Shown here one piece after another: positions 4,023-40,785 of a DNA stretch of 64,000 bases. The position numbers were made by a program, and so were the translations under genes. This DNA is from Spirochaetales bacterium. GTDB taxonomy: Bacteria > Spirochaetota > Spirochaetia > JABEVK01. How positions within the stretch are numbered: position 1 is the first letter of the stretch; each line of letters opens with the position of its first letter. The DNA is taken from the NCBI GenBank assembly GCA_027451945.1, contig DAIDHT010000033.1, positions 4,245 to 68,244 of the forward strand. The letters run 5' to 3'. The notes beneath the pieces were generated by a model that saw nothing but the letters and a program-made list of their open reading frames with translations, made no database searches and was not told where the DNA came from.

Positions 4023-5462
4023 ATGCCGGATGAAGTTTTTCGCCTTAGGAGCAATCGTTCTCTTGCCCATTTTCTTGAAGTCTTTTTTTTAAGGTACCCC
4101 GGAGTTTTAGGCCCCGCTCAGGCCGAAACCTGGGAGTTCTGGGATACCTATGACGGCCGGTGGGGAAAAGACGGCAAAGCCTGGGTGCGCAACGAAACCT
4201 CCGAGCCACTGCTTGTTCAACCCCCTTCGTGGCGCCCCTTACCCGGTTCTTGGTCAGATTTTGGCCTTCAAAGCCCCGTCTTATGGGCCAAAGCTCACTT
4301 AACGGTTCAAGAAGTACGGTTTTCAACAGGTTCAACGCGATCTTTGCAGGGTTGGCTAACCCACAGCCGCCACGGAACCTTTTTAGCTTTGGGTGAAACG
4401 GATGACCCGTTAGCTCCAGCCATCATCGAGACCTTAGCACACGAATTAGAACGCGTCACCGACCGGGGAACGGCTCTTGTTGCCCCCTTGCGTCATAGCT
4501 TTGTCTGGCCGAGCGGGCGGCAACCAGCCGCAGGCGAAAGCGCACTCACTTACTTTGTAGCCCGCCTTCGCCAAGAGTTTACGCTGGCTCGCCAATACGA
4601 AAAGGGCATGGCGAACGACGTTGACACCGAGTGTTTGCATCAGTACCGTACACGACTCAGGCGCGCTCGGTCGATTGTTCGCCTGGGACAAAAGCTCTTC
4701 GGCCCGTCGCTCAAAGGTTTGTCGCAACACCTTCAACAGCTCATGCGCCCGAGCAACGAGTTACGGGATCTTGATGTTCTTTTGATCAGTTGGGAAAGCT
4801 TTACTCGCTTACTCCCGCCCGAATTTGCTAATGACTGGACGCTATGGAAAGCGGCGCTCGAAAAGCAACGGCAAATAGAGACTCGTTCGTGGAAAAGGTG
4901 GCTTAAATCCGAAAGCTACCAAACCGTTGTCCAAGAATTCACGCTGGCCCTCGACAGCTTGTCGGTACCTGGTCCCGCCATCGAGGTGGCAGCCTTGCCA
5001 CTCTTAGCGCGGCTTGCCAAGCTACGGAAAATTCCTCGCGCACTGGGCCCTTCCCCAACCGCAGAACAACTTCACCAGTCTCGGATCCAGCTCAAAAAAG
5101 GCCGTTATAGCTTAGAGATGCTGAGCTATTGGTGCCCACCCAGGGTTTATGCCGGGCTCGTTAAAGAAATCCGGTCATTGCAAGACCGACTTGGGGCTTT
5201 CCAAGACCTTTCTGTGATTTTACATCGCGTCAGCCGCGAGCTAGAGGCCAAAAAGTCTGCGTTAGCCCCCCTGCCCCGTGGCGTTCTTTGGGGTACCTTG
5301 TGGGCCGAAGCCCGCCAAATGCAATGGCAGGTTCATAAAGCCCTGCTGAGGCTGGCCTCCCCCCGACTTCGTAAAGTTTTTACCGTTTTAAAGAGCCTAG
5401 AGTCCGCTCAGCAAAAGCCCGAAAAGCAAAGCCCTGACCCGGAGACACCCCATGAGTTATGA
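4023..5462 (+). CDS. CHAD domain-containing protein
   Basis: C-terminal half carries the conserved His/Arg helical signature (ECLHQYRTRLRRARSIVRLGQKLFG... LHQSRIQLKKGRYSLEML) of CHAD domains. The start was set at the ATG at 4023 (MPDEVFRL) behind an AGGAG SD. The track ORF begins at an upstream GTG. Confidence 0.7.
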   Translation: MPDEVFRLRSNRSLAHFLEVFFLRYPGVLGPAQAETWEFWDTYDGRWGKDGKAWVRNETSEPLLVQPPSWRPLPGSWSDFGLQSPVLWAKAHLTVQEVRFSTGSTRSLQGWLTHSRHGTFLALGETDDPLAPAIIETLAHELERVTDRGTALVAPLRHSFVWPSGRQPAAGESALTYFVARLRQEFTLARQYEKGMANDVDTECLHQYRTRLRRARSIVRLGQKLFGPSLKGLSQHLQQLMRPSNELRDLDVLLISWESFTRLLPPEFANDWTLWKAALEKQRQIETRSWKRWLKSESYQTVVQEFTLALDSLSVPGPAIEVAALPLLARLAKLRKIPRALGPSPTAEQLHQSRIQLKKGRYSLEMLSYWCPPRVYAGLVKEIRSLQDRLGAFQDLSVILHRVSRELEAKKSALAPLPRGVLWGTLWAEARQMQWQVHKALLRLASPRLRKVFTVLKSLESAQQKPEKQSPDPETPHEL

Positions 5463-35994: not shown

Positions 35995-37653
35995 TTAAGT
36001 CCCCCCTATTGGGTTTCCATTAAGATCGAAACTCTGCACCAAAGCCAAGGTTCCCCCCGCCGAGGGCCGATACCGGTAGATATAGACACCGGAGGTATCC
36101 ACGGTGGGCCGTTCATCAATCCCTTCGTGGGCTTCTTCGCTTAAATCACCAAATTTGTCATATTTCCACAAATAGATGGCTACGCCTCGGTTGTCGTCTT
36201 TTAGTTGACCGAGAGTTCCCAGGTTCCTCTGTTTAATCCGTAAACCATGCTCATCGTACGTCCACTCATACGAGGCTACGCCTTGGGGGTCAAGTTTTAA
36301 CTGACCGTCCAGCCCCAGATTGTCCTGACGGAGCAAATGTCCCTGACTGTCGTACGTCCAACGGTAGCCAGCCAAGCCGTTATTGGCTTCCATGAGTTGC
36401 CCTGGAGCTGATTCAAAGCGTTCTTGGGTCAACTGACCCCGTACGTTATACTGACGCCTAACAATCATCACCCCTTGACTGTTAGGAACCGGCTGAAGTT
36501 GGGCGTTATAGGTTTTGAAGGTGATGGGGTTTCCCTCTTGGTCGTACGTCCAGCGCCGGACAGCGATTCCGTCAACATCGTCTTTGAGCTCATAGCGTTC
36601 CGAAACTGACTTTTGAACCGACGGGAGCGCGGCGTAGTACGGGTTAATTTCAAGCCCGTAAATGTCTTGTTCTTTTTGATTAGACTGATCAAACCACTGA
36701 GTCTTGACCATGGCGGCCCCCCGGTCATCCAAGGTCAATTGCCCTTGAGTGTCGTAGCGCCAGACTCTGGTCCAATGCAGGGCATCATTGTACTGCCAGA
36801 CGTAACGGGCCACCCCGTTTTGGTCCGTAATGGGGCGGCCTTGCGCATCCCAAAAGTCCTGTTCTTGAAGACGACCCTGTGAATCCCAAACCTTGGTCCA
36901 GCGGGCAATGCCATTCCAGCCCCCCACCGGCTGACCCTGCAGGTTCAACCTCGTCTCACTGACCGGGTTACCTGCTTCGTCATACGTCCACGCAAACGAA
37001 GCAACTCCTGTAGGTTCCGCCATGGGTTTGCCGTTGATATCTAAAAGTTTCGCCGTCAAACGGTTACCCTGGTTATCGTAGGTAAAGTCTATTTCGCCCA
37101 CTCCAGCTTTATTAACAGTACGTTCCCCACTCTTATCGAGGCGTATTGAACGCACCCGGCGACCTTGGCTATCGGGCACCCACAAATAGGCGCTGATGCC
37201 CGAGCTGTCATCCTTGAGGTTCCCGGCTCGGTCATACTGAAACATTGCCACAAAGGCTCCCGAGGTGTTCTTTTTCAGACGACGAACGGCGATTCCGTCG
37301 CTATCCTCTATGACCAGACCCTGAGGGTTTTCGTTGGTACGAATTTCCCAATCACCGTCCTCGGTCACGATGATACGTGCCACTCCGGTGTTGGGAGCAG
37401 GAGCGTTGACGCCACGGCGGAAGTAATCGACCTCTTTGACTTGCCCTTGAACTGTGGTCACAGCCCAGCAATCGCTAGCCTTCCAGTCAGAGCCCGAAAG
37501 AGGGTACCGCCCCACAAAGCGATAACCGCCATCCAACGTGAGGCGCGTAAAGCGATACGTTTTTTGGAGGGGTGCCTCTTGGGCGAACAAAGGGGTTGCC
37601 AACACCAGAAACAGACTGATCAGCCACCCTCCGAAACGAACACGGCCATTCAT
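35995..37653 (-). CDS. secreted YD-repeat (RHS-like repeat) protein, 552 aa, with no C-terminal toxin domain
   Basis: Many YD-type repeats (WTYDEAGNPV, YDNQGNRLTAKLLDINGKP, YRYRPSAGGTLALVQSFDLNGNPIGGT). The start was set at the Met preceding the signal peptide (MNGRVRFGGWLISLFLVLATPLFAQEA). Confidence 0.7.
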   Translation of the reverse strand: MNGRVRFGGWLISLFLVLATPLFAQEAPLQKTYRFTRLTLDGGYRFVGRYPLSGSDWKASDCWAVTTVQGQVKEVDYFRRGVNAPAPNTGVARIIVTEDGDWEIRTNENPQGLVIEDSDGIAVRRLKKNTSGAFVAMFQYDRAGNLKDDSSGISAYLWVPDSQGRRVRSIRLDKSGERTVNKAGVGEIDFTYDNQGNRLTAKLLDINGKPMAEPTGVASFAWTYDEAGNPVSETRLNLQGQPVGGWNGIARWTKVWDSQGRLQEQDFWDAQGRPITDQNGVARYVWQYNDALHWTRVWRYDTQGQLTLDDRGAAMVKTQWFDQSNQKEQDIYGLEINPYYAALPSVQKSVSERYELKDDVDGIAVRRWTYDQEGNPITFKTYNAQLQPVPNSQGVMIVRRQYNVRGQLTQERFESAPGQLMEANNGLAGYRWTYDSQGHLLRQDNLGLDGQLKLDPQGVASYEWTYDEHGLRIKQRNLGTLGQLKDDNRGVAIYLWKYDKFGDLSEEAHEGIDERPTVDTSGVYIYRYRPSAGGTLALVQSFDLNGNPIGGT

Positions 37654-37742
37654 GGGCGCCAGAATAACACGCCCCAAAAAATTCAGCAAGAAACACTGGA
37701 CAATTCTAGGGACCGGGATTAAATTTTGAATTGGGAGGTGCA

Positions 37743-37922
37743 ATGACAATAGAAAAAGCGAGCGGCTCGGACCCGCTCCTAGTACGACCGTCAGCTACGA
37801 CGGACCGCCCCTCCGGCCAAGCGCAAGCAACCCAAAAGATTTCATCCGAAGAAGTCAGGGAAACAGACCGGAGAGCCAACCAAGATGAGGCAAGGGGCAC
37901 AAAAATCAATGTCCTGGCATGA
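37743..37922 (+). CDS. small hydrophilic protein (59 aa), hypothetical
   Basis: ATG 5 nt after GGGAGGTG. MTIEKASGSDPLLVRPSATTDRPSGQAQATQKISSEEVRETDRRANQDEARGTKINVLA. A strong intrinsic terminator follows immediately. Confidence 0.45.
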   Translation: MTIEKASGSDPLLVRPSATTDRPSGQAQATQKISSEEVRETDRRANQDEARGTKINVLA

Positions 37923-37932
37923 CGAAGCGAGT

Positions 37933-37962
37933 GGCGCATCTACACAAGATGCGCCTTTTTTC
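37933..37962 (+). terminator. Rho-independent terminator
   Basis: GGCGCATCT-acaca-AGATGCGCC followed by TTTTTTCTTT. Confidence 0.65.
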
Positions 37963-37979
37963 TTTATAATGAGTCTTCC

Positions 37980-39161
37980 ATGAAAGTTTTTTTGCTCGCC
38001 TTTTTAGGCACCCTTTTAGTTAGCTCGTGTGCTACGGTTAGCCATCCTTCCCCCTCTCAAAGCCTACCGTCACCGGTACCTGAAAGTCCGAAACCCCAGG
38101 CCCTTTCTTTGACGTGGGAACCTGGGGCTCCGCCCTACCTGGCCGCAGGGTTTGTCACTCTTTCTGGTCAAAAGTTCTTGGTCATCGCCGATACTGGCTC
38201 ACCCTTCAGCTATATCTATCCTGCCGACGAAGCCCAGCGTTTTCTTAGGCAAGTCGGGCCACCCACACAGCAGGGCTCCAGGTCTTTCACCTTTAGTCAC
38301 CTCACCCTGGGAGGGGCAAGCTTTTCTGGTTTAACCCTTCGCATAGGCCGGTATCGTAGTGCCGGACGGGACTACCCCCGCGCCTTAGTCTTAGGTACCG
38401 ACGCGCTTGCTCAACACTGGTTGAGTTGGAAAGCGGGGACCCATACTCTGACAATTAGCCTCCAAAAGCCCCCTTTTCATGGGGTAGACCTGCCTTGTTC
38501 CCTGGTAGAACGCCAAGGGGCCGGCCCCACTTTAGTGCTTGAGGGGAATTTGGCCGGTCAACCTGCTCGCTTTTTGCTGGATACCGGCAACGGCTCGAGC
38601 TTTGCTCGGCTCCAAGGGGCCGCAGGCTCTGCCCCCATACCGGTCAGGGGCATGGGCCCCGGTGGCGACACCTGGAACCTTTCGTTGTATTCAAGCCCAC
38701 CACTCCAGCTGGGCGCTCTAAGCTGGCCAGAGCTTCCGGTGCTGGATGAGCCAGAGGGCGCCTTCGCAGGCCGTCTGGGGTTTAGCTTTTTTCGGGGTAC
38801 CGACTGGTGTAGCTTTTTGGGGCGGACGGCGACTCAGGCCCCTGAGTTTTTGGTCAAACCGGACCAACAGTGGCTGGCATCTAAAACTGCCTCTTATGGT
38901 TTTGGTTTGGGGCTTTATCTTATTGACGGCGGCTGGACGGTTATTGTTTCGGAAGTTCTTCCCGGACTAACAGGCTTACCCGCTCTTGGCTCACAGGTCA
39001 CAGCAGTCAACGGGGTCAAAGCAACGGGCGAAAACTTTCCTCAGATTTGGCAAGCTCTTCAGCAACCGGAACTTGCTCTGTCTTGGATTGAAGGGAACCA
39101 GCTTCTGACCCGCACCTTTCAGCGAACGGTACTGACTACTCCTGGGGAGGACGCTCTTTAA
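37980..39161 (+). CDS. lipoprotein with two retropepsin-like aspartyl protease motifs and a C-terminal PDZ domain
   Basis: Lipobox LVSSC. Two hydrophobic-DTG motifs (VIADTGSPFSYIY and FLLDTGNGSSFARL) about 140 aa apart. C-terminal GFGLGLYLIDGGWTVIVSEVLPGLTG...VTAVNG is PDZ-like. Confidence 0.55.
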   Translation: MKVFLLAFLGTLLVSSCATVSHPSPSQSLPSPVPESPKPQALSLTWEPGAPPYLAAGFVTLSGQKFLVIADTGSPFSYIYPADEAQRFLRQVGPPTQQGSRSFTFSHLTLGGASFSGLTLRIGRYRSAGRDYPRALVLGTDALAQHWLSWKAGTHTLTISLQKPPFHGVDLPCSLVERQGAGPTLVLEGNLAGQPARFLLDTGNGSSFARLQGAAGSAPIPVRGMGPGGDTWNLSLYSSPPLQLGALSWPELPVLDEPEGAFAGRLGFSFFRGTDWCSFLGRTATQAPEFLVKPDQQWLASKTASYGFGLGLYLIDGGWTVIVSEVLPGLTGLPALGSQVTAVNGVKATGENFPQIWQALQQPELALSWIEGNQLLTRTFQRTVLTTPGEDAL

Positions 39162-40707
39162 CAAAGAATTGCATCAGCTGAACGAAGTTATAGATAAGCT
39201 TATAGGTATCGGTCATCCATTCGTGCAGTTTGCGGTCGGTTGAGGCCTCAAGTGACTTCCAGTTGAGGATAAGTTCATGTTTGGTTTTCGCATGATCGTC
39301 GATGGCCATCTTGAGGTGTTTGCCAATGATCACCAAGTGTGTTGCGGCCTCGGTAATAATAGCTCGGGCCCCACTGTTGATGTCTTTCAGCTGTTGCTTG
39401 AGCGAAATCATCGCGTTTTGGTCTTTATCCGAGCGGGTAAGAAGAACCTTGAGCTTTTGCCCTCGTTCGGCGTCCTCAGCCAAAGACTCGTCAAAAGTGG
39501 TGAGGTTGTCAGAAACTTCCATGAGGCTATGAAAGGACTCGGACATGGGTTGGGCCATGGCGTTTGACATCCATTGCCCTTTGACGAGGAGCAAGTTGAC
39601 AAGTTCCCGGATATCGCGTTTGTAAAAATCTAACAAAAAAGCCTTGAGGTAGTTCAACGGCTCAACAAAGAGGTAGCCGGACACCCGTTTCTTCGAGAAG
39701 CCTATATTGGCTTTTTCGGTGTAGTTCTTCGTTCGACTGATGCCTGTCGTGCCAAAAACCTGTTGAATCAAATTGTTGAGTTTATCGTTGCGCCGTTCTT
39801 CGGCAATCTTGGCCAAAACCGATTCAGCTTGATTTTTGACTTGCGTTAAGTAAGCCTCGACGATTCGTTCCGAAGGGAATTCGGACTTTGGTTGGTAGAA
39901 AGGGTCTTTGCCCATGTATTGAATGATCTGTAAGAGGATGCCAGAACGCCGAATCGCCGCCAGCGAAGCTAAAAACTTTTTCCAGCCAGGGCGACTGAGT
40001 ACTTCCAAATTCTTGTACGATTTAAGCACATCAAACAGGCCATCCCAATCGGCCGAGGCCGAAAGCGGACCACTTACAGTTAAAAAATCTTTGAGGTCTT
40101 CGACCACATATTCGCCGTTAATCGGCTCAAACCGAGGCAGGTAACCAAAGTCTCGTTCCGGAAGCATCGAATCAAACTTTTTGAGCAAAAAATAGAAGTT
40201 GAACGTGATAAAATCAATAAAGGTCAAAAAGAGGTTGTACTGCGTATCGATCTTTTTTTGAGTTTCGATCTCTAAAGCGGCGGTGTAGTCGACCAGGCTT
40301 GTGCGAACGCGGTCAAGAAGTTGTTCATGAGGCAGGGTTTTGGCCAGCTCACGAATTCCAGCTTCCGTCAACTCTTCTTGCAGGGCCTTTTGACTGGCCG
40401 TCAGAACCTGCTCAATAAAGATCATTTTCAAAGCTTGCGAGGTCGCAGCGTTCTGAAGCAAGGTTTGGGCCGAGCCAATGACACCGTAAACCTCATAAAA
40501 AAATTTGGCGAGCCCAACATCAACCTGATCGGGCATTTTGACAAACTTTCCGTGCGATTTTTTGAGCTGAGTCTTTAAATCTTTTAAAAGAGCCTTCTTT
40601 TCCCGTTCAGGATCAGGCTCCATGCCCAGAAGCGAGAGGACGCGATCAAACCACCCAAGGGGTTGATCGGACTTAGGGTTGGACTTTTGCGTCGGGGCTT
40701 TTGCCAT
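39136..40707 (-). CDS. hypothetical protein (~523 aa), Lys/Glu-rich helical
   Basis: Long ORF, probably starting at the ATG at 40707 (MAKAPTQK) behind GAGAGAGA. No recognisable motif. GC is slightly lower than in the neighbours. Confidence 0.5.
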   Translation of the reverse strand: MAKAPTQKSNPKSDQPLGWFDRVLSLLGMEPDPEREKKALLKDLKTQLKKSHGKFVKMPDQVDVGLAKFFYEVYGVIGSAQTLLQNAATSQALKMIFIEQVLTASQKALQEELTEAGIRELAKTLPHEQLLDRVRTSLVDYTAALEIETQKKIDTQYNLFLTFIDFITFNFYFLLKKFDSMLPERDFGYLPRFEPINGEYVVEDLKDFLTVSGPLSASADWDGLFDVLKSYKNLEVLSRPGWKKFLASLAAIRRSGILLQIIQYMGKDPFYQPKSEFPSERIVEAYLTQVKNQAESVLAKIAEERRNDKLNNLIQQVFGTTGISRTKNYTEKANIGFSKKRVSGYLFVEPLNYLKAFLLDFYKRDIRELVNLLLVKGQWMSNAMAQPMSESFHSLMEVSDNLTTFDESLAEDAERGQKLKVLLTRSDKDQNAMISLKQQLKDINSGARAIITEAATHLVIIGKHLKMAIDDHAKTKHELILNWKSLEASTDRKLHEWMTDTYKLIYNFVQLMQFFVKERPPQE

Positions 40708-40785
40708 AGTATCTCTCTCTATCATCAGCTAAGGAGTGGCTGGCTGTCAATTGACAAGGGAGGTGGAAACTGTTAGGAAAAAAAC

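Follow-up and report, generated by a model that had tools for sequence, protein, structure and literature searches.

Aspartic proteases of clan AA are recognised by the signature hydrophobic-hydrophobic-Asp-Thr/Ser-Gly-(Ser/Thr/Ala), present once per lobe, and by a psi-loop with a hydrophobic-hydrophobic-Gly feature in each lobe (PMC2761423). Among the bacterial retropepsin-like enzymes, Rickettsia APRc is a homodimer located in the outer membrane, where it is anchored by transmembrane helices, and it performs limited processing of envelope or secreted substrates (PMC4140852). Pseudomonas RloA/RimB is also a homodimer engaged in limited processing of such substrates, and is soluble and periplasmic (PMC12239564). 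The present study concerns a gene at positions 37980..39161 of a 64,000-nucleotide stretch of DNA (positions 4,245 to 68,244 of contig DAIDHT010000033.1 from a Spirochaetales bacterium), which is referred to below as the window. The product of this gene, a predicted lipoprotein of 393 amino acids (aa), is probably an envelope protease held by a lipid anchor, in which two fused lobes of the retropepsin type (clan AA, Asp_protease_2 lineage) are followed by a PDZ domain of the bacterial type.

Retropepsin-like lobes and their conservation

Both lobes of the lipoprotein carry the active-site motif of clan AA, which reads I-A-D71-T-G-S in the N-terminal lobe (lobe 1) and L-L-D201-T-G-N in the following one (lobe 2). 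Across the whole window, the stop-free segments of 200 aa or more add up to 19,247 aa, and they contain no further instance of hydrophobic-hydrophobic-D-T/S-G; two or more such motifs appeared in only 64 of 100,000 shuffles of the protein. The preliminary description of this DNA had placed two Asp-Thr-Gly (DTG) motifs near residues 70 and 205; both are present, and the second is in fact located at residue 201.

The relationship of the lobes to known families was assessed with a comparison profile of 30 lobes of genuine bacterial retropepsin-like (Asp_protease_2) proteins, using hhalign. Lobe 1 matched this profile with a probability of 94.1% (P 1.2e-7, 88 columns) and lobe 2 with a probability of 97.1% (P 6e-11, 101 columns); the C-terminal region, used as a control, gave no significant match (P 0.07, 7 columns). 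In both lobes, DTG was aligned on DTG and the psi-loop segment on the I/L-L/I-G-x-D-F of the panel. The two lobes were also in register with each other on DTG (P 0.0024). Given these profile probabilities, both lobes can be considered homologous to retropepsin-like lobes although the curated threshold is missed, and the profile check proposed in the preliminary description thus places both DTG segments in lobes of the retropepsin type. Pfam Asp_protease_2 matches seven of nine family members, weakly, with a best E-value of 4.9e-5. Neither TIGR02281 nor TIGR03698 matched the lipoprotein, and nothing relevant was found for it in NCBIfam. Sequence searches of the PDB with the protein and with the family profile returned a marginal match or nothing; phmmer aligned entry 9IY9 on the DTG of lobe 2 before any structure model had been made.

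The family comprises about 10 sequences, and their sources are uncultured Spirochaetales-like metagenome-assembled genomes (MAGs) or metagenomes. A word-indexed search of 5.8 billion clusters yielded four close relatives with 68-85% identity, one of which has a 'Spirochaetales bacterium' MAG as its named source. From 1.84 billion representatives, an exhaustive hidden Markov model (HMM) search retrieved as new members only P0005, P0006 and one fragment, and a search with a broadened profile added P0010 and P0011. Two metagenome scans, one for each subfamily, recovered zero further members.

In an alignment of nine sequences reaching down to 27% identity, D71, T72, D201 and G203 are invariant and position 202 is occupied by T or S. 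The lobe-1 psi-loop L136-V-L-G139, whose V137-L138-G139 has the hydrophobic-hydrophobic-Gly feature, is also invariant, as are G267, D275 and W276 of lobe 2. The loss of the Asp residues in homologues, named in the preliminary description as an outcome that would speak against its proposal, was thus not observed.

Two further features distinguish the subfamilies. In the distant subfamily (P0006, P0010 and P0011), lobe 1 is longer by about 15-18 residues (…ENFPYFPNNPQHV…), which are inserted at approximately residues 100-104 of the window protein (alignment A3). A flap-like segment would be expected at this place, so that substrate access may differ between the two subfamilies. Two cysteines, C173 (38496-38498) and C277 (38808-38810), are located at the first strand and near the last strand of lobe 2, and both occur together only in the close subfamily; P0005 retains only the first of the pair (C173). 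C173 and C277 might be joined in a disulfide staple, as has been reported for RloA in the periplasm (PMC12239564).

Predicted structure, mode of action and rival explanations

The AlphaFold model obtained from nine diverse sequences (predicted local distance difference test, pLDDT, 65.6; predicted template modelling score 0.55) features beta-rich lobes and a well-predicted C-terminal domain, with a helix at residues 82-92 after the first DTG. The retropepsin beta-barrel fold is present in both halves of the model. The top Foldseek match in the PDB was 9IY9, a 'putative endopeptidase' of Bacteroides fragilis (E-value 1.7e-8). Three entries of tethered single-chain HIV-1 protease followed at E-values of about 1e-5 (best 8e-6), with alignments of 244-263 columns that cover both halves, together with the allergen Bla g 2 (4rld, 4e-5) and with renin, plasmepsins and pepsins at about 1e-4. 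Proplasmepsin II and endothiapepsin were aligned over 175-182 residues at about 4 Å, which is more than one lobe, and the lobes of the model are therefore in a pepsin-like mutual arrangement. Matches to DegP, DegS and HtrA2 (template modelling score, TM-score, 0.17-0.22) can be attributed to the PDZ domain and a generic beta-barrel. Hence, AlphaFold and Foldseek put the DTG segments inside a pepsin/retropepsin fold, as the preliminary description had required for its proposal, and give indirect support to the juxtaposition of D71 and D201. Its picture of a single-chain pseudo-dimer of retropepsin- or pepsin-like lobes is supported by the conserved Asp residues, the lobe profiles and the Foldseek matches.

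Structure comparison of the model also assigns a PDZ fold, a beta-sandwich of five to six strands with groove-forming helices, to the C-terminal region, and the structurally nearest PDZ domains are those of Ctp/Prc (C-terminal-processing) and HtrA proteases. A weak in-register profile match was obtained between this region and the PDZ regions of two Bacteroidota relatives (P 0.0033, with the lobes as controls at P ≥ 0.65); it aligns the S-Y-G-F-G-L loop and the L-G-x-x-V-x-x-V-N-G strand. The loop, a putative carboxylate-binding loop of the GLGF type (x-hydrophobic-G-hydrophobic), reads S-Y-G-F-G-L (305-310) in the close subfamily and aligns with the 'YGF' of the PDZ domains of L012, a Prolixibacteraceae MAG lipoprotein, and L014. 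F308 is invariant, and G307 is replaced by Pro in the distant subfamily (F-P-F). The domain is invisible to Pfam and NCBIfam. The C-terminal PDZ that the preliminary description called 'clear' is consequently retained as a fold, on the basis of structure comparison and the weak profile match, and loses the adjective.

The proposed mode of action follows from this architecture. The protein would be exported by the Sec pathway and lipidated by Lgt/LspA at Cys17, as the lipobox implies, and a Pro/Ser-rich linker of about 23 residues would keep the catalytic body near the membrane surface, in the periplasm or possibly on the cell surface. Each lobe would contribute one Asp-Thr-Gly, so that the Asp dyad is formed within one chain, an arrangement that HIV protease, APRc and RloA achieve by homodimerising. 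From motif conservation and fold, the expected chemistry is endoproteolysis by a water molecule that D71 and D201 would activate in the cleft between the lobes. The PDZ domain, if it works like its counterparts in Ctp/Prc, HtrA and RseP, may recognise a C-terminus or beta-strand that an envelope protein exposes, either to hold the substrate at the cleft or to gate the cleft. Envelope or secreted proteins are the likely targets, for limited processing or for clearance; a precedent is given by APRc (PMC4140852) and RloA (PMC12239564), which act on envelope proteins. The envelope quality-control or processing role suggested in the preliminary description is conjectural. No specific substrate is indicated, because no neighbouring gene is conserved across the family.

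Several observations weigh against a protease of this kind. With Pfam Asp_protease_2 (PF13650), which has a gathering cut-off of 24.3 bits, residues 188-255 score 23.6 bits and lobe 1 by itself 13.7 bits; the lipoprotein stays below the threshold of every curated family. The isolated C-terminal 102 residues gave no match to PF00595, PF13180 or PF17820 at E ≤ 10, and none was found in any family member. Across the family, the second DTG is followed by N, T or A, where pepsins have S/T, and the psi-loop of lobe 2 reads (R/Q)-hydrophobic-G267, with one hydrophobic residue before the Gly and not the hydrophobic-hydrophobic-Gly arrangement. The AlphaFold model is of medium confidence, with low values at residues 203-206, 223-233 and 268-288 of lobe 2, and the global TM-scores against bilobed proteases are low (0.25-0.40). 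Since the DTG and psi-loop residues also have a structural role, catalysis is not proven by the fact that they are conserved. Finally, the second motif of L012 is degenerate: it reads V-E-L-D-M-G, with DTG lost and the psi-loop retained (T-V-G-M-D-F-L), which means that half-degenerate tandem retropepsins exist.

Part of this evidence bears on the main rival explanation, according to which the product is a catalytically inactive pseudo-protease scaffold, that is, a lipid-anchored binding or chaperone-like protein comparable to the cockroach allergen Bla g 2 in the pepsin fold. The presence of Bla g 2 among the top Foldseek matches agrees with such a protein, as do the atypical context of lobe 2 (DTG-N, and R/Q before the psi-loop hydrophobic-Gly), the replacement of the second DTG by DMG in L012 and the extreme divergence of the sequence from active families, under the Pfam thresholds. 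However, inactive homologues such as Bla g 2 typically lose the Asp, Thr/Ser and Gly of D-T/S-G, whereas the spirochaete family retains both Asp, both Thr/Ser of the 'fireman's grip' and both Gly at 27% identity, with about 70% of the other positions changed. The PDZ domain, moreover, is most like those of active proteases. The retention of all six D-T/S-G residues at this level of identity makes the inactive scaffold a disfavoured and rather unlikely explanation.

A member of the bacterial pepsin family proper (MEROPS A1, shewasin-like) in place of a retropepsin-derived tandem is very improbable. No match to Pfam Asp (PF00026) was found at E ≤ 1, and the best sequence and profile matches are Asp_protease_2 and gag-asp_proteas. 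The lobes of about 125-130 residues are shorter than those of pepsins (about 160-170), and no flap Tyr equivalent to Tyr75 can be assigned. The structural evidence points in the same direction: the best matches are tandem retropepsin-like 9IY9 and single-chain HIV protease, and the helix at residues 82-92 after the DTG is a trait of Ddi1 and of bacterial retropepsin-like domains. Known bacterial A1 homologues, in addition, lack signal peptides (PMC2761423). It would also be conceivable that the two DTGs are coincidental, and that the protease and PDZ likenesses of an unrelated beta-rich lipoprotein are artefacts of a medium-confidence model. An earlier model from five close sequences, with a pLDDT of 40, would be compatible with this, as would the missed thresholds of curated HMMs and the low TM-scores. 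Nevertheless, the profile-profile matches use sequence only, are independent of the model and have negative controls, the two motifs are invariant across the family and seldom arise in shuffled sequences, and phmmer alone had found the 9IY9 alignment on the lobe-2 DTG before modelling. Coincidence therefore has hardly any credibility as an explanation, and a lipid-anchored protease with two retropepsin-type lobes and a PDZ domain is preferred.

Gene, neighbourhood and upstream conserved element

The coordinates of the lipoprotein gene, its domains and the adjacent features are listed in the table.

Features of the lipoprotein locus (positions of the window; nt, nucleotides; CDS, coding sequence; ORF, open reading frame)
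Feature	Position	Strand	Evidence and remarks
YD/RHS-repeat protein	35995..37749	-	RHS_repeat/YD_repeat, E-value 1.6e-11
Hyper-conserved 248-nt element with 59-aa ORF (37743-37922)	37715..37962	unassigned	
59-aa ORF	37743..37922		Inside the upstream element
Hairpin GGCGCATC-N7-GATGCGCC and T-run	37933-37962		End of the element; 18 nt before the lipoprotein start codon
Complete CDS of the 393-aa lipoprotein, stop codon included	37980..39161	+	ATG start; read from sequence
Lipoprotein signal peptide, residues 1-17 (MK, hydrophobic core, lipobox V-S-S-C17)	37980..38030	+	Sequence; Cys conserved
Cys17 codon	38028-38030	+	
Pro/Ser-rich tether, residues 18 to ~40, variable, predicted disordered	38031..38099	+	Low conservation; pLDDT <50 (residues 1-37)
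Retropepsin-like lobe 1, residues ~41-165	38100..38474	+	hhalign 94.1%, P 1.2e-7; invariant D71, T72, L136-G139; pLDDT 71-84
Lobe-1 catalytic motif I-A-D71-T-G-S, D71 codon	38190-38192	+	Helix 82-92; psi-loop L136-V-L-G139
Retropepsin-like lobe 2, residues ~166-295	38475..38864	+	Pfam 23.6 bits; hhalign 97.1%, P 6e-11; invariant D201, G203, G267, D275, W276
Lobe-2 catalytic motif L-L-D201-T-G-N, D201 codon	38580-38582	+	Psi-loop-type L266-G267-F; D275-W276
PDZ-fold domain, residues ~296-385	38865..39134	+	Putative carboxylate-binding loop S305-Y-G-F-G-L310; strand L336-G-x-x-V-x-x-V-N-G345
Helical protein, DUF5312	39136..40725	-	E-value 2e-13

The N-terminus of the product consists of M1-K2, a 12-residue hydrophobic core, which includes VFLLAFLGTLL, and the lipobox V14-S15-S16-C17, which fits the pattern L/V/I-A/S/T/V/I-G/A/S-C of bacterial lipoproteins processed by Lgt and LspA. 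The lipobox Cys is kept in eight of the eight family members with a complete N-terminus, in the variants SSC, AAC, AGC and FSC; P0006, cut by a contig end, has an incomplete N-terminus and was not counted. The product is thus inferred from its sequence to be a lipoprotein lipidated at Cys17, and the reading frame and lipobox are exactly as the preliminary description gave them. The protein is already present, without a name, in NCBI and ENA MAG assemblies, and MAGs are the only source from which the organism is known. The protein has no paralogue within the window.

The lipoprotein gene points away from the YD-repeat gene and towards the DUF5312 gene, whose 3' end it overlaps by 26 nt with its own (39136..39161), and therefore looks monocistronic. 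The overlap is kept in all syntenic relatives (L001, L002, L026, L029 and L030). The neighbours are those of the preliminary description, namely a YD-repeat protein, a small ORF and a helical protein. The YD/RHS-repeat ORF extends over 584 aa from a TTG start, but its homologues are called at 552-553 aa; the true start is likely to be M33 (~37653), which would give a Sec-type signal peptide (MNGRVRFGGWLISLFLVLATPLFAQEA). Apart from RHS_repeat/YD_repeat, no toxin or Rhs-core domain match was found in this protein.

Close relatives share the whole neighbourhood of the lipoprotein gene, and distant members are found among unrelated genes: a thioredoxin-like protein beside P0006 and other genes beside P0010 and P0011. 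The thioredoxin-like protein (Thioredoxin_7/Thioredoxin_2; L025:1231-2130) follows the P0006 gene on the same strand and does not occur with other members. The YD-repeat, DUF5312 and thioredoxin-like proteins were each considered as operon partners and rejected in view of the unrelated contexts of the distant members. The check for conserved neighbours that the preliminary description had suggested accordingly turned out negative, and the adjacent genes are not conserved partners.

The 248-nt element upstream of the gene shows 90-99% DNA identity among relatives, compared with 67-84% for the flanking genes. In L029 the element is 99.2% identical at the DNA level and the protein 84% identical, and in L030 the values are 93.9% and 76%; in L026, the element reaches 90.7%, against DNA identities of 66.9% for the lipoprotein gene, 74.1% for the YD gene and 80.1% for the DUF5312 gene. 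The 59-aa ORF is open in the relatives, and a good Shine-Dalgarno sequence, GGAGG, stands 4 nt ahead of its ATG. The ratio of synonymous to non-synonymous codon differences in this ORF is 45:85, a non-coding-like value similar to out-of-frame controls (35:81 and 26:96); the lipoprotein gene, used for comparison, gives about 1.2-1.8:1. Gene callers disagree on the strand of any ORF in 37715..37962, and some annotate the 59-aa ORF.

The terminal hairpin and T-run of the element are perfectly conserved, and variable positions fall in hairpin loops. No Rfam match was found for the element, and its minimum free energy z-scores are not significant; because the stems are invariant, no covariation is obtainable. 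Further copies were found neither in the window nor in any fetched locus, and the element is absent from the loci of the distant subfamily. It may represent a small RNA (sRNA), a cis-regulatory leader, a dual-function RNA or a small protein. A more elaborate reading, in which the element is a new structured RNA (a terminator-gated cis leader of the protease or a dual-function sRNA encoding the 59-aa peptide) and the protease is a PDZ-gated single-chain retropepsin with a dedicated envelope substrate in the spirochaete lineage, is doubtful and can be put forward only as speculation.

A promoter-like sequence, TACACA-18-TATAAT (37941..37946 and 37965..37970, 10/12 matches), overlaps the terminator hairpin. 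Its -10 box lies only 9 nt before the ATG of the lipoprotein gene and would therefore give a nearly leaderless mRNA. TATAAT is kept in four of five relatives and is replaced by TATGCT in L026. Contigs L029, L032, L033 and L034, from several independent assemblies, have their starts within or beside the 248-nt element, at 71-255 nt ahead of the gene. The window protein, P0002, P0004 and P0010 are all found in the single sample ERZ27236847. The likeliest cause of the contig breaks is the co-assembly of related strains with near-identical sequence at the element; a multi-copy repeat or mobile element is less likely.

Comparison with known systems

Single-chain retropepsin-like proteases bear on the question of how duplication and fusion turned dimeric half-enzymes into bilobed pepsins (PMC2761423). 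Fused versions that look independent of one another are evidently numerous in bacteria, and for one of them, 9IY9, there is a crystal structure. The spirochaete branch adds a lipid anchor and a PDZ domain on very diverged lobes that keep every catalytic-site residue. It is an extreme case for asking which residues are indispensable in the fold, and whether the PDZ-guided substrate delivery of serine and metallo envelope proteases works with aspartic chemistry. For the protein and its approximately 10 relatives, now unnamed 'hypothetical proteins', a suitable annotation is retropepsin-like (clan AA) aspartic protease lipoprotein with PDZ domain.

A scan seeded with a fragment of 9IY9 recovered tandem retropepsin-like proteins, with two DTGs in a single chain, from at least five phyla (Bacteroidota, Verrucomicrobiota, Planctomycetota, Cyanobacteria and Proteobacteria). 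The taxa include Bacteroidales, Chryseobacterium, Prolixibacteraceae, Roseivirga, Verrucomicrobiota, Planctomycetaceae, a cyanobacterium, Sphingomonas and Steroidobacteraceae, and the accessory domains varied. A homologue search with a 47-aa fragment of 9IY9 returned nothing. The statement of the preliminary description that bilobed aspartic proteases are rare in bacteria does not hold for these retropepsin-derived tandems; it applies to pepsin family A1 (PMC2761423). The fusion to a PDZ domain was also described there as a little-characterised type. This is right insofar as literature searches produced no experimental study of tandem or PDZ-bearing bacterial retropepsin-like proteins, and no paper on 9IY9, but the same fusion occurs in two Bacteroidota proteins. 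The lipoprotein is thus a rare, divergent, spirochaete-restricted branch of an existing tandem retropepsin-like class, and its lobe-lobe-PDZ architecture is not new.

The first of these Bacteroidota proteins, WP_169319892.1 of Chryseobacterium aquaticum (388 aa), resembles the lipoprotein in size and in the order of signal peptide, DTG lobe, second lobe and PDZ-like end. It is collinear with the family over 312 columns in hhalign, with both DTGs, the psi-loops and the 'YGF' loop of the PDZ domain in register; at the sequence level, the resemblance is borderline (17% identity, and P 0.0014 when a single sequence is compared). Its names in RefSeq and UniProt are 'retropepsin-like aspartic protease', 'clan AA aspartic protease' or 'aspartyl protease family protein'. 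The second, L012:150-1349 (399 aa), has the same order of lobes and PDZ domain and a lipobox LLTSC, and its PDZ domain (PDZ_2, E-value 3e-5) is supported by Pfam, NCBIfam and PDB matches. The Bacteroidota tandem-PDZ proteins exceed the Pfam Asp_protease_2 threshold with 51-56 bits, unlike the spirochaete lipoprotein. A comparison of lobes 1 and 2 with the N- and C-lobes of other tandem proteins, made as a test of a shared ancestral fusion, showed no lobe-specific preference, and the tandem-plus-PDZ layout of the spirochaete and Bacteroidota proteins may be either inherited or convergent.

Entry 9IY9 itself ('putative endopeptidase' or 'exported protein', Bacteroides fragilis, 420 aa, released 2025) is a tandem retropepsin-like protein with 15% identity to the lipoprotein. 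Unlike the lipoprotein, proteins of this type lack a PDZ domain and carry a helical domain of some 170 residues at the N-terminus. The lobe fold and the DTG/psi-loop signature are shared with APRc, RloA/RimB and the 'clan AA' families TIGR02281 and TIGR03698; these homodimeric enzymes, however, have one lobe per chain, must dimerise, are anchored differently and lack a PDZ domain, in contrast to the two diverged fused lobes and PDZ domain described here.

The PDZ-bearing envelope proteases HtrA/DegP/DegS (serine), Ctp/Prc of S41 (serine) and RseP (metallo) provide a functional analogy only. Their catalytic domains belong to the trypsin, S41 or M50 types, whereas that of the lipoprotein has the aspartic clan AA fold, and no Trypsin_2 or HtrA model matched the lipoprotein, which does not have the trypsin fold of HtrA/DegP. 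Pepsin family A1, including the bacterial shewasins (PMC2761423, PMC4814920), is likewise single-chain and bilobed, with one catalytic Asp per lobe, psi-loops and a similar fold. The lipoprotein differs from it in the absence of a PF00026 match, in its shorter lobes and in that no flap Tyr was identified; the bacterial A1 homologues are also cytoplasmic, whereas the spirochaete protein is predicted to be secreted and lipidated.

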